From: a virus
Taxonomy: Duplodnaviria > Caudoviricetes
Direction: 5' to 3' (one strand)
DNA length: 47,196 bases
IMG/VR virus record: IMGVR_UViG_3300044477_000031
Location: 1 to 47,196 of that record
Shown: one piece after another, positions 7,816-44,923 of the stretch
Layout of the letters: each line of letters begins with the position of its first letter
How positions within the stretch are numbered: the first letter of the stretch is position 1
Program-made: the position numbers and the translations under genes
The notes under the pieces: generated by a model
Told to the model about the DNA's origin: nothing
Seen by the model: only the letters and a program-made list of their open reading frames with translations
Databases searched by the model: none

Positions 7816-7960
7816 AAAAAACGAAAAGCCTTCTTTGCATCCCCCCGGCTGACTAGGCCGTAATCGGTGTAGTGGCACCGATCGGAGATACAAAAAAGGC
7901 TCTTTTATTATCGTCTCCACTAAGACACGATGTCAACGGGTAGTCAAACCGCTGACTCCA
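7816..7960 (-). ncRNA. C4-like antisense RNA with upstream a1/b1-like target hairpins
   Basis: Target loops TGACTA (7932-7956) and TAGTGG (7910-7931) are complementary to loops TAGTCA and CCACTA of a three-way-junction RNA (7824-7903) that ends in a T tract. Confidence 0.8.
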
Positions 7961-7962
7961 CT

Positions 7963-7991
7963 ATTCTAGCACCTGTAACTGCATTTGTACA
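7963..7991 (-). promoter_or_regulatory. sigma70-type promoter for the C4-like leader and replication genes
   Basis: TGTACA-17 nt-TAGAAT with extended -10 TG. Confidence 0.6.
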
Positions 7992-31649: not shown

Positions 31650-31721
31650 CGCCGCCTAATGGAATCGAACCATTGACAAATACATTTTGTGTATGTGCTT
31701 TCCCGTCTAAGCTAAAGCGGC
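31650..31721 (-). ncRNA. tRNA-like element with degenerate anticodon loop
   Basis: Acceptor GCCGCTT/AGGCGGC, D-arm GCTT/AAGC with GG, T-arm AATGG-TTCGATT-CCATT; anticodon loop ACAAAAT lacks U33. Confidence 0.7.
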
Positions 31722-35346: not shown

Positions 35347-35489
35347 TGATTACCTCGCATCTGTATTATGCCATATATATTATGATAACGCAATATGTTT
35401 ACACTTTTCTGTTTTGTGTCACAATCATTATGAAATAAACACTGTTTTATTGTAATATTGCGGTTTGCATGAATACGTTATATTGTTTC

Positions 35490-35613
35490 ATTACGGACTG
35501 GAAAACCGTGATAATATGAGCTAATATAAAGAATCCCTTTGGGGTTCTGTTTTGTACGCTTATAGCTCAGCGTCCCGGCTTTCCACCGGAAACAGATCAC
35601 CAAAGGTTTTTTT
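35490..35613 (+). ncRNA. second C4-like antisense RNA with upstream targets
   Basis: Targets TGGAAA (hairpin 35490-35512) and TGAGCTA (35517-35523) are complementary to loops TTTCCA and TAGCTCA of the junction RNA 35536-35606, which ends in T7. Confidence 0.78.
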
Positions 35614-35677
35614 GTTTCTGGAACGTTTCGAACTGCGGGTAAAACCACATCATAGAAAGTTGTCAGTCATGGCTTAG

Positions 35678-35906
35678 ATGGACACCGGTTACAGGCCACG
35701 GCGTGGAGTTGTCGATAGATGCGCGTCGTTATTTCCGGCGGTTGATACAAACTGAAAGGCACTAAGTAAAGGCGTATTAGTCATTTACCTCGTTGGCGAT
35801 GCCGTGGCTCCGTAGGGCATGAGTTTATCGCTAGAGACAGCAACCTAACTTGACTTTACCAGTCTTGCTTAGGGGAATTGTCTCGTTAGCTCAACCGGTT
35901 CACCAT
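35678..35906 (+). ncRNA. unknown highly structured non-coding RNA
   Basis: Several nested long-range helices and no ORF with an RBS. Confidence 0.65.
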
Positions 35907-35937
35907 AGGGCATAAAGGTAGATAGATAAGATAAGGT

Positions 35938-36270
35938 TTAAGATTGACGTTTTGCCCTTGACCACTGGACGAACTTGATAGCAAGCGCGGCAAGCTGAAT
36001 TGCTTCGGTTTCCTGTTTGACGGGATCAGTTTCGGCAAAGATTTCGTTGAGTTCCTCGGCTAAAAGAGACATTGGCTCTGCCTTTCCACAGGCTTCAGCA
36101 ATATCATTATCCGCCTTATGTATATCTGCTTCATTTACATGCCATTCGACTTCTTCATCGTCCGGCATGATTATTTCCAGCTTATCCCACGGATGCTGTT
36201 CATCTTGGCGATAGCGTTCGGCTTCTATCTCTGCAAAGATTGTCTGTAGGTCAAAAGAGTTCAGGTGCAT
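35938..36270 (-). CDS. MazG-like NTP pyrophosphohydrolase-fold protein
   Basis: LAEELNEIF...ETEAIQLAALAI pattern; GGAG RBS before the MHLN start. Confidence 0.5.
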   Translation of the reverse strand: MHLNSFDLQTIFAEIEAERYRQDEQHPWDKLEIIMPDDEEVEWHVNEADIHKADNDIAEACGKAEPMSLLAEELNEIFAETDPVKQETEAIQLAALAIKFVQWSRAKRQS

Positions 36271-36457
36271 TCGTTTCTCCTTGTTTCGCTTTAGGCTTGC
36301 CACTACCAAACATTGCACACCGCATACCGCGCCTTGTTTCGCAGTCGTATTGATGGCACCAATGTTTACCGTCTACCTGTTCGTATTGATAGCATTTACC
36401 GCATTCCTTATCAGCAGTACAGGCCTGAAACTCAAAGGCTAAGTGTTCGATTTTCAT
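36251..36457 (-). CDS. hypothetical Cys-rich protein
   Basis: ORF coupled by overlap. Confidence 0.55.
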   Translation of the reverse strand: MKIEHLAFEFQACTADKECGKCYQYEQVDGKHWCHQYDCETRRGMRCAMFGSGKPKAKQGETNAPELF

Positions 36458-37397: not shown

Positions 37398-37466
37398 GAC
37401 TTCCTCAATCAGGGCTTGGTCGGTAATCGGTATAAGCGGCCCTTGCGCTTATACCGTGGACGATCT

Positions 37467-37600
37467 GGCTAACATTAAGTTAACTGGCAAGGCCCGCTAC
37501 GGGCATCACACAATCCGTCAGAATAATAATGAAAACACCGAGAATAACCTTTCGGCATTGTGCATTTCGGGGACTTGTCCAGTTGAACTTGTTGTTCGAC
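37467..37600 (-). other. attC-like site, 134 bp
   Basis: GTCGAAC AAC AAGTTCAACTGGACAAG ... CTTGCCAGTTAACTT AAT GTTAGCC, with unpaired extra bases on one arm. Confidence 0.8.
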
Positions 37601-37750
37601 GCCGCCAGAAAACAAAGCCTCTATTGATTTGATAATTTCGTTATATTCTCCGTCTGGAACCATGCGCGATATACTGACAGTTCCCATCAATCTTCCGTTT
37701 TCGTATTCAAGCGCGAGTCCTCCGATAACCCTTGAAGTCTTTATCTTCAC
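37475..37750 (-). CDS. hypothetical protein (cassette 2), reading through its attC
   Basis: AAAGGA RBS, GTG start. Confidence 0.55.
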   Translation of the reverse strand: MKIKTSRVIGGLALEYENGRLMGTVSISRMVPDGEYNEIIKSIEALFSGGVEQQVQLDKSPKCTMPKGYSRCFHYYSDGLCDARSGPCQLT

Positions 37751-37821
37751 GGTTTCGTCCTTTCTGGCGGCTTGGTTCGTGTCGGTATAAACGCGCCAGT
37801 GTTTATACCGCTAAAGAATCC

Positions 37822-37881
37822 GTCGAACATTTGGATAACTTGCAACGGTACTCCGTTGTCAAGTTGATCCAGTTGTTAGCT
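37822..37881 (-). other. attC-like site, 60 bp
   Basis: AGCTAAC AAC TGGATCAACTTGACAACGG AGTA CCGTTGCAAGTTATCCA AAT GTTCGAC. Confidence 0.85.
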
Positions 37882-44850: not shown

Positions 44851-44923
44851 TGCCCAATAAAGGAATCGAACCCTTGACCTCGGCCTTACAACGGGCGCGC
44901 TCTGCCAACTGAGCTAATCGGGC
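44851..44923 (-). tRNA. tRNA-Thr(UGU), with atypical G32 and a C-C mismatch in the anticodon stem
   Basis: Cloverleaf GCCCGAT/ATTGGGC, D-arm GCTC/GAGC, loop GTTGTAA, T-arm AAGGG-TTCGATT-CCTTT; CCA not encoded. Confidence 0.8.

Follow-up and report, generated by a model that had tools for sequence, protein, structure and literature searches.

A predicted C4/CI-like cloverleaf attenuator that appears to gate a rare structured RNA in a Caudoviricetes virus

In phages P1 and P4, the antisense RNAs C4 and CI pair with sites in the leader of their own transcript and so terminate it, and in the systems so described the switch controls protein genes (PMC4825925, PMC5320573, PMC8198154). In a virus record of complete length (IMGVR_UViG_3300044477_000031; 47,196 bases, the whole of which is called the window below), the same architecture recurs in a sequence unrelated to theirs and seems to control a structured RNA that belongs to none of the catalogued families. 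A search of the literature, largely of open-access papers, found neither a C4-type switch with an RNA output nor a phage RNA antirepressor. The window encodes terminase, head morphogenesis and tape measure proteins, DnaB, Sak4 and RuvC, with its late genes on the minus strand. The RNA cassette sits in an 870-base gap flanked on one side by small accessory genes and on the other by a 430-aa ‘scaffold’ gene, without family match and so named from its position before the capsid genes. Relatives of the virus are found in metagenome-assembled genomes bearing conflicting labels. A tyrosine integrase is present in five of 25 records and was found in none of the three that bear the RNA, so that a lysogenic state would be conjectural for these. 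A tRNA-like sequence with an atypical anticodon arm (31650-31721, minus strand; 48 bits with Rfam) lies between capsid and head-tail genes, and there is a more regular tRNA at 44851-44923.

The likeness to immI of P1/P7 (C4, RF01695; icd; ant1/ant2) lies in a three-helix, tRNA-like cloverleaf, of 71 bases in the window and about 77 in the C4/CI RNAs, whose two loops complement sites in its own transcript (PMC5320573, PMC8198154), and in the slot of the cassette, which in one sister contig is occupied by an Ant-family gene. The differences are several. The C4 model RF01695 does not match the cloverleaf at E ≤ 10, the closing stem begins CC rather than with the GG of the RNase P site, a U-tract comes immediately after the cloverleaf, and what lies downstream is non-coding, icd and ant both being absent. 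With P4 CI (seqA/seqC; IsrK/SeqA leader hairpin) the locus shares an RNA that would terminate its own transcript through leader pairing, as well as a second copy of the architecture ahead of replication genes, as in P4 (PMC4825925); it differs in that seqC-like sites are clear only in the homologous loci L016 and L099 and weak in the window, and in that the regulated product is an RNA. By analogy, the upstream element would work like C4 and CI without being a demonstrated member of their group; from its sequence it is probably a new variant of the C4/CI kind, and would represent a new lineage of cloverleaf attenuators.

The first-pass annotation of this DNA had placed a C4-type switch upstream of the RNA, and comparison with homologous loci bears it out (Table 1). 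The window cloverleaf folds with a z-score of -3.28 (one of 200 shuffles as good), and a three-helix cloverleaf is predicted in all five leaders available, those of the window, L038, L016, L099 and L030. The target words are perfectly complementary to the cloverleaf loops; the words vary between homologues and the loops vary in step. For the second loop and first target these read TTTCCA/TGGAAA in the window, TTATCAA/TTGATAA in L038 and TTACCA/TGGTAA in L030, and overall three different words give 6-8 perfect pairs in five of five leaders. The first loop and second target form 6-8 pairs in the window, L038 and L030, and only five in L016 and L099; this match also occurs in a variant contig of sequencing run X7. 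The downstream site (a2/b2, seqC-like) forms 11 pairs in L016 and L099, six with one G-U in L038, and none of six or more in the window. The predicted promoter is weak in the window, where a consensus scan did not call it, and clear in L038 (TTGACT-17-TATTAT); it was placed by register with the latter, at equal distance from a conserved CGGAC word. Blocking the first target lifts the predicted formation of the closing stem to 0.79 in the window, where it is otherwise 0.00, and to 1.00 in L038, where it is otherwise 0.44; in L016 and L099 the stem is predicted to form with or without blocking. C4/CI RNAs are released by RNase P and terminate transcription in trans; for the present locus, folding supports switch behaviour in two of four homologues, the window and L038.

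Table 1. Features of the RNA cassette and of related elements. Positions are those of the window unless a locus is named.
Feature	Position	Strand	Details and basis
LexA-type winged-helix DNA-binding protein, 69 aa	35137..35346	-	Pfam PF01726, E 5e-10
Predicted sigma-70-type promoter	35458..35486	+	-35 TTGCGG 35458-35463; 17-base spacer; -10 TATTGT 35481-35486
Predicted transcription start	~35493	+	From predicted promoter
Leader target sites	35493..35523	+	5' hairpin 35493-35509 presents TGGAAA (35499-35504); TGAGCTA 35517-35523
Cloverleaf and U-tract, predicted conditional terminator	35536..35617	+	U-tract 35607-35617
Cloverleaf parts	closing stem 35536-35542/35600-35606; loop words 35563-35569, 35580-35585	+	
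Stem-loop X	35618..35666	+	Separate module; large conserved loop, stem sequence differs per homologue
Core structured RNA	35680..35914	+	~235 bases; comparison of homologues
Core helices	35685-88/35735-38; 35698-705/35722-29; 35739-43/35750-54	+	Supported by alignment
Core helices	35766-73/35780-88; 35795-99/35828-32; 35807-10/35815-18	+	Supported by alignment
Core helices	35834-40/35878-84; 35844-48/35869-73; 35889-92/35908-11	+	Supported by alignment
Variable hairpin	35852-64	+	Tip of 3' arm; different sequence in each lineage
Candidate pseudoknots	35704-08/35808-12; 35708-12/35840-44; 35758-60/35801-03	+	Near-invariant words
11-base repeat, first copy (CCRWAGRGCAT)	35810..35820	+	Homologue alignment
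11-base repeat, second copy	35903..35913	+	Homologue alignment
Second C4/CI-like switch	7816-7963	-	5' hairpin, two target words, cloverleaf, U-tract
Second-type switch in a relative	L129, near 7974	+	Model-free U-tract scan

A second switch of the same kind, for which Rfam gave no credible match, lies immediately ahead of the operon that runs into the DnaC-like and DnaB genes of the window, and the related record G028 has one at the equivalent place before its replication genes. In both, the loops differ from those of the first switch. A model-free scan reduced 1,675 candidate U-tracts to 12 hits, of which five were known leaders, two were new and five looked spurious and were set aside by eye. 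When 20 stretches from nine RNA-negative records were scanned for the switch architecture, under a stricter filter than that applied to the 1,675 tracts, none of 426 U-tracts passed.

Ninety-seven loci were gathered with the scaffold protein as query. Four distinct full-length copies of the core RNA emerged, the window's included, the others being L038 (with L074, 98.5% identical), L016 with its duplicates, and the record of L029, completed as L099. Core identity to the window is 76%, 68% and 66%, that of L038 to the other pair 61-62%, and that within the L016/L099 pair 94%, so that about three independent lineages are represented. Few DNA stretches are as well conserved between the window and the records G015 and G028 as the RNA region. 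Distribution is narrow: a search of 61 related viral records found the RNA in two, neither of them among the 15 relatives rated at least 90% complete, with one copy per genome, and it occurs in two well-separated clades of the scaffold protein (33 rows, none dropped). Wider searches added nothing. Blastn against phages and plasmids gave no further homologue, the true hits of five viral pattern scans were the same two records alone, and two genome pattern scans gave 13 loci of which the covariance model confirmed none. Model R1 found nothing credible in 26 plus 38 further records, nor in 151 genomes of the phylum of G066, the latter a weak negative, as only 12 candidates were scored in each listed genome. 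The cassette is found in both orientations: twice, in the window and L038, it opposes the late genes with no gene behind it, while L016 and L099 have it at another site and in the direction of the late genes. The patchy presence, together with the varied contents of the slot described below, marks the cassette as an accessory, self-contained unit.

Energy alone does not bear out the description of the region as highly structured. Single-sequence folding gives z = -0.10 for 35620-35935 (42 of 100 shuffles as good) and z = -1.81 for 35676-35908 (12 of 200), and since folding energy is ordinary the case depends on the homologues. Their RNAalifold consensus reaches -54.5 kcal/mol on the plus strand against -42.9 on the minus, favouring the plus strand, as do the G-U-tolerant changes in the core. 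On an unfitted alignment the revised fold (Table 1) has 92.5% of 214 cells paired and 16 cells changed on both sides, against 77.7% of 202 and nine for the fold first proposed, a comparison partly biased towards the revised fold, which derives from these same four sequences. Every cell of helix 35698-705/35722-29 is paired, including a C-G to G-C swap. The words of the candidate pseudoknots are near-invariant and hence offer almost no covariation to judge by. In the 11-base repeats, two positions vary between lineages, both copies changing together.

All nine helices named in the first-pass annotation are complementary where it placed them, and the alignment treats them unequally. The 3' arm (35834-35884) is supported. 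The long-range ATGG/CCAT and ACCGGTT/AACCGGT helices, with 62.5% and 61.5% of cells paired, show no compensatory change and fall away, as does GCCACGGCGT/ATGCCGTGGC (35695-704/35799-808), which is 85% paired, has two columns broken in two of four sequences and lacks compensation. The ACTAA/TTAGT hairpin shows compensation in two columns and could represent an alternative pairing or a pseudoknot. In variant contigs from sequencing runs (four plus four) that are probably DNA, a G to A change at 35740 leaves the revised fold paired at that position and disrupts the CGTCG/CGGCG hairpin. The unit itself needed redrawing at both ends, conservation running past 35906 and stopping at 35914, and 35618-35666 being a separate stem-loop. 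The suggested search for covariation did find compensated helices, but with only four full-length copies, two of them 94% alike, statistical proof is impossible and the covariation is suggestive rather than established; relatedness alone can also beat the shuffles of the covariation tool. Taken together, we consider it highly probable that this is a genuine structured RNA under selection.

That the switch's output is not a protein, as first proposed, agrees with a conserved, structured and non-coding sequence. The longest open reading frames in 35620-35935 are of 20-31 aa and none is kept in homologues. The core copies have no common frame, and synonymous changes make up 5-12 of 42-54 changed codons across all six frames in comparison with homologues, with no synonymous bias in any. 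Both 11-base repeats encode Arg-Ala-stop in one frame, with Tyr for the stop in the second repeat of L016. A hidden peptide was considered and rejected, since a ribosome-binding site is lacking and none of the frames favours synonymous change. A tRNA-like or tmRNA-like end was likewise rejected: acceptor pairing amounts to 3-4 pairs, and the CCA-like 3' word is CCG in L099.

The core RNA lies outside every catalogued family among the 4,227 of Rfam. The suggested Rfam search of the region gave nothing at gathering score and nothing credible at E ≤ 10, with no match to known self-cleaving ribozyme classes at that level or to the covariance models of RNase P RNA, tmRNA, 6S and SRP RNA. Neither did the raiA, ROOL, GOLLD, ARRPOF and HEARO models match in the window and three homologous loci, and ARAGORN found no tRNA or tmRNA genes in four loci. 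The core resembles raiA, ROOL, GOLLD and ARRPOF as a conserved multi-helix non-coding RNA, here in a phage, and raiA and ARRPOF are similar to it in size; it differs in matching none of their covariance models, in being much rarer and in standing behind a C4-like attenuator. Group I introns have a P3-P7 core with a bulged guanosine site, and flanking exons. For a group I intron or GIR1, Rfam gave no match, no gene is interrupted at the locus, and the alignment shows the P7-like helix 35834-40/35878-84 without interruption. As regards retrons, DRTs and DGRs, no reverse transcriptase was found among the window proteins scanned (23, 8 and 43), among 27 of 55 long open reading frames of G028, or adjoining the RNA in L016 or L038. 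Marker words of the RNA went unmatched in supplement files 3-6 of the catalogue of Fremin et al., a negative of limited weight since these files may not hold sequences; the rest of that catalogue, whose candidates are of at most 151 bases, may list part of the RNA (PMC10690425).

The slot divergent from the scaffold gene holds different things in different contigs. It is empty in L040, carries another cloverleaf in L030, where the contig ends, and holds the cloverleaf, stem-loop X and core RNA in L038. In L036 it contains a Bro-N protein of the Ant family (PF02498; phrog_130, E 5e-35) followed by stem-loop X. L036 and L038 have the same promoter and are 93% identical over 1,197 bases comprising the scaffold gene and promoter. 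By sequence comparison, then, the RNA cassette is allelic with an Ant-family gene, an allelism that rests on one contig (L036) since such genes are rare in the family (two of 25 records). A common slot does not prove a common function: in L004, a more distant phage, an HNH gene occupies it. That gene ends on a copy of the last ~25 bases of the RNA, with no core RNA ahead of it, and the same ~25 bases also follow unrelated sequence in one contig of run X3. The L004 gene (5209-5838, minus strand) is a free-standing HNH gene whose last codons overlap the RNA's 3' word.

Stem-loop X travels with either the core RNA or the Ant-family gene, and its loop could be a protein-binding site. The loop is also seen behind the Ant-family gene of L036 (near 87, minus strand), with no cloverleaf upstream, in a contig that ends some 40 bases beyond the stem-loop. 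In the leader of that gene (L036 730-800, minus strand), a hairpin loop complements, by eye, the word just before the start codon, suggesting possible translation control.

The same 870-base gap contains the 69-aa LexA-type open reading frame, too short to include the C-terminal protease domain. In LexA that domain is the route of SOS cleavage; a LexA-like protein without it would escape such cleavage and would presumably need another route of inactivation. All three long records that carry the RNA, from two distant scaffold clades, also have this gene, whereas it is absent from each of the 15 complete records in which no RNA was found. Among 25 long records the domain occurs in four, those three and G010; allowing for G015 and G028 being near-twins, with G010 related to them, the co-occurrences that count as independent number two. 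LexA-like genes also lie near the scaffold gene in several relatives, and occur without detected RNA in G010, G004 and G026 (all incomplete) and in several metagenome contigs. We infer from these arrangements that the LexA-like protein is a candidate partner of the RNA; it is at most a putative repressor, its gene lying in the late region. A link in which the core would be a guide to, or decayed copy of, the LexA-like gene was rejected as chance. The window core and gene have common words of 8-12 bases and score 14, against a maximum of 13 in 2,298 other windows; the G028 core scores the same (14) at an unrelated gene, and the G028 and G015 cores miss their own LexA-like genes.

These features can be accommodated in a tentative scheme, which we regard as plausible while falling short of probable, in which the core is a trans-acting decoy, made when the switch reads through, that sequesters a protein. 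Its role would be the one probably filled, at this position in a sister phage, by an antirepressor of the Ant family. Transcription would start at the predicted site (Table 1). The loops of the nascent cloverleaf would then pair with the leader, as computed for two of four homologues, so that no terminator stem forms and polymerase reads through. Later, by comparison with P4 CI, free cloverleaf RNA would cover the leader sites, letting the stem form and transcription stop at the U-tract, and owing to this shutdown production of the core RNA would be confined to a pulse following infection or induction. The core itself, as comparison of its homologues shows, keeps a multi-helix fold and no reading frame. 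In the weakest step, it would bind a DNA-binding regulator, the phage's own LexA-like protein being the first candidate, perhaps through the two 11-base motifs. The full version, in which a pulse-released 235-base RNA inactivates a non-cleavable LexA-like protein and is interchangeable with a protein antirepressor gene between sister phages, we would call a long shot. Of the functions offered in the first-pass annotation, a protein scaffold would come closest to a protein decoy. The resemblance to 6S RNA, CsrB/RsmZ and CarS lies in the proposed logic only, that of a regulator sequestered by mimicry. CsrB-type RNAs use repeated motifs, and CarS is reportedly a DNA-mimic protein antirepressor; there is no likeness of sequence or fold to 6S RNA or CsrB/RsmZ and no Rfam match, and binding is here a proposal.

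Other readings must be weighed against a protein decoy, and some probability belongs to explanations unforeseen here. The RNA might be a cis-acting leader of the late operon, acting in antitermination or translation control, with the inverted copies antisense or repurposed. In L016 and L099 it ends at a Shine-Dalgarno site just ahead of a small Cys-rich open reading frame, terS and terL on the same strand, as would fit such a leader; the predominance of the cloverleaf in these two, blocked or not, also tells against the scheme above. Yet the window and L038, with no gene downstream, keep the fold, as do the wastewater variants, which argues against a purely cis role, and L025, 96% identical to L016 from terS on, has 372 upstream bases unmatched to L016. 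On balance a cis leader seems rather doubtful. Base pairing offers another route, the core either mopping up the phage's own cloverleaf immunity RNAs as a sponge or acting antisense to a phage or host mRNA. Given two apparent RNA switches in the window, a sponge would be a natural counter-regulator; however, complementarity between the core and the leaders of either switch amounts to 7-10 pairs, several of them G-U, the core positions involved differ between the window and G028, and the word matches to the LexA-like gene are absent in homologues, leaving this improbable.

About as improbable, if not slightly more so, is a ribozyme of an undescribed class that would be self-cleaving, processing or circularising, perhaps by way of the two 11-base repeats. 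The multi-helix fold, invariant junction words and possible pseudoknots suit a catalytic RNA, and the core is of a size with small group I introns or RNase P, but it matches no known family at E ≤ 10, there are no exons to splice and the P7-like helix has no bulged base. We give equally little credence to a mobile element, whether selfish or in decay, of which the RNA component of an HNH-associated element would be one case, or to a DNA-level cassette whose conserved words mark recombination boundaries. Such an origin would explain the patchy occurrence in two distant clades and both orientations, and the recurrence of the last ~25 bases at the end of the HNH gene and in the X3 contig; it sits poorly with the conservation between the window and G015/G028, the G-U-tolerant changes, the single copy per genome and the lack of a core before the HNH gene. 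Least credible, and in our judgement very unlikely, is the replication primer RNA or origin element raised in the first-pass annotation. A switch of the same build does precede the replication genes, and in plasmids the regions required for replication contain ARRPOF-type motifs of comparable size (PMC5737381). Against this, the window has an initiator-type gene as well as a DnaC-like loader and DnaB, the latter two some 29 kb away, most relatives do without the RNA, as do all 15 complete ones and sister contigs, and ARRPOF gave no match.

Beyond the first-pass annotation, the analysis adds that the cassette is allelic with an Ant-family gene, that a LexA-like gene adjoins it and that the replication operon has a second switch. 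A natural comparison is offered by sister contigs in which the slot is empty or holds either an Ant-family gene or the RNA, and the LexA-like protein is a named candidate partner; since most orphan phage RNAs come without such handles, function is here directly testable. If the core binds a repressor, an RNA would be doing the job of a phage antirepressor; if it does not, a new, rare family of structured RNA and a new lineage of cloverleaf attenuators would still stand.

Two further elements of the window deserve mention. An intergenic stretch of 478 bases (37398-37875, minus strand) folds with z = -4.05, none of 100 shuffles being as good, and had no credible match in Rfam or the phage database. 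It is covered by many variant contigs with joints in the wastewater runs, and two short pieces match G010; it may be a further structured RNA or else a mobile element of small size. Finally, 36251-36457 (minus strand) encodes a 68-aa Cys-rich protein with counterparts in four other relatives, and the open reading frame directly 3' of the RNA in L016 and L099 resembles it by eye.
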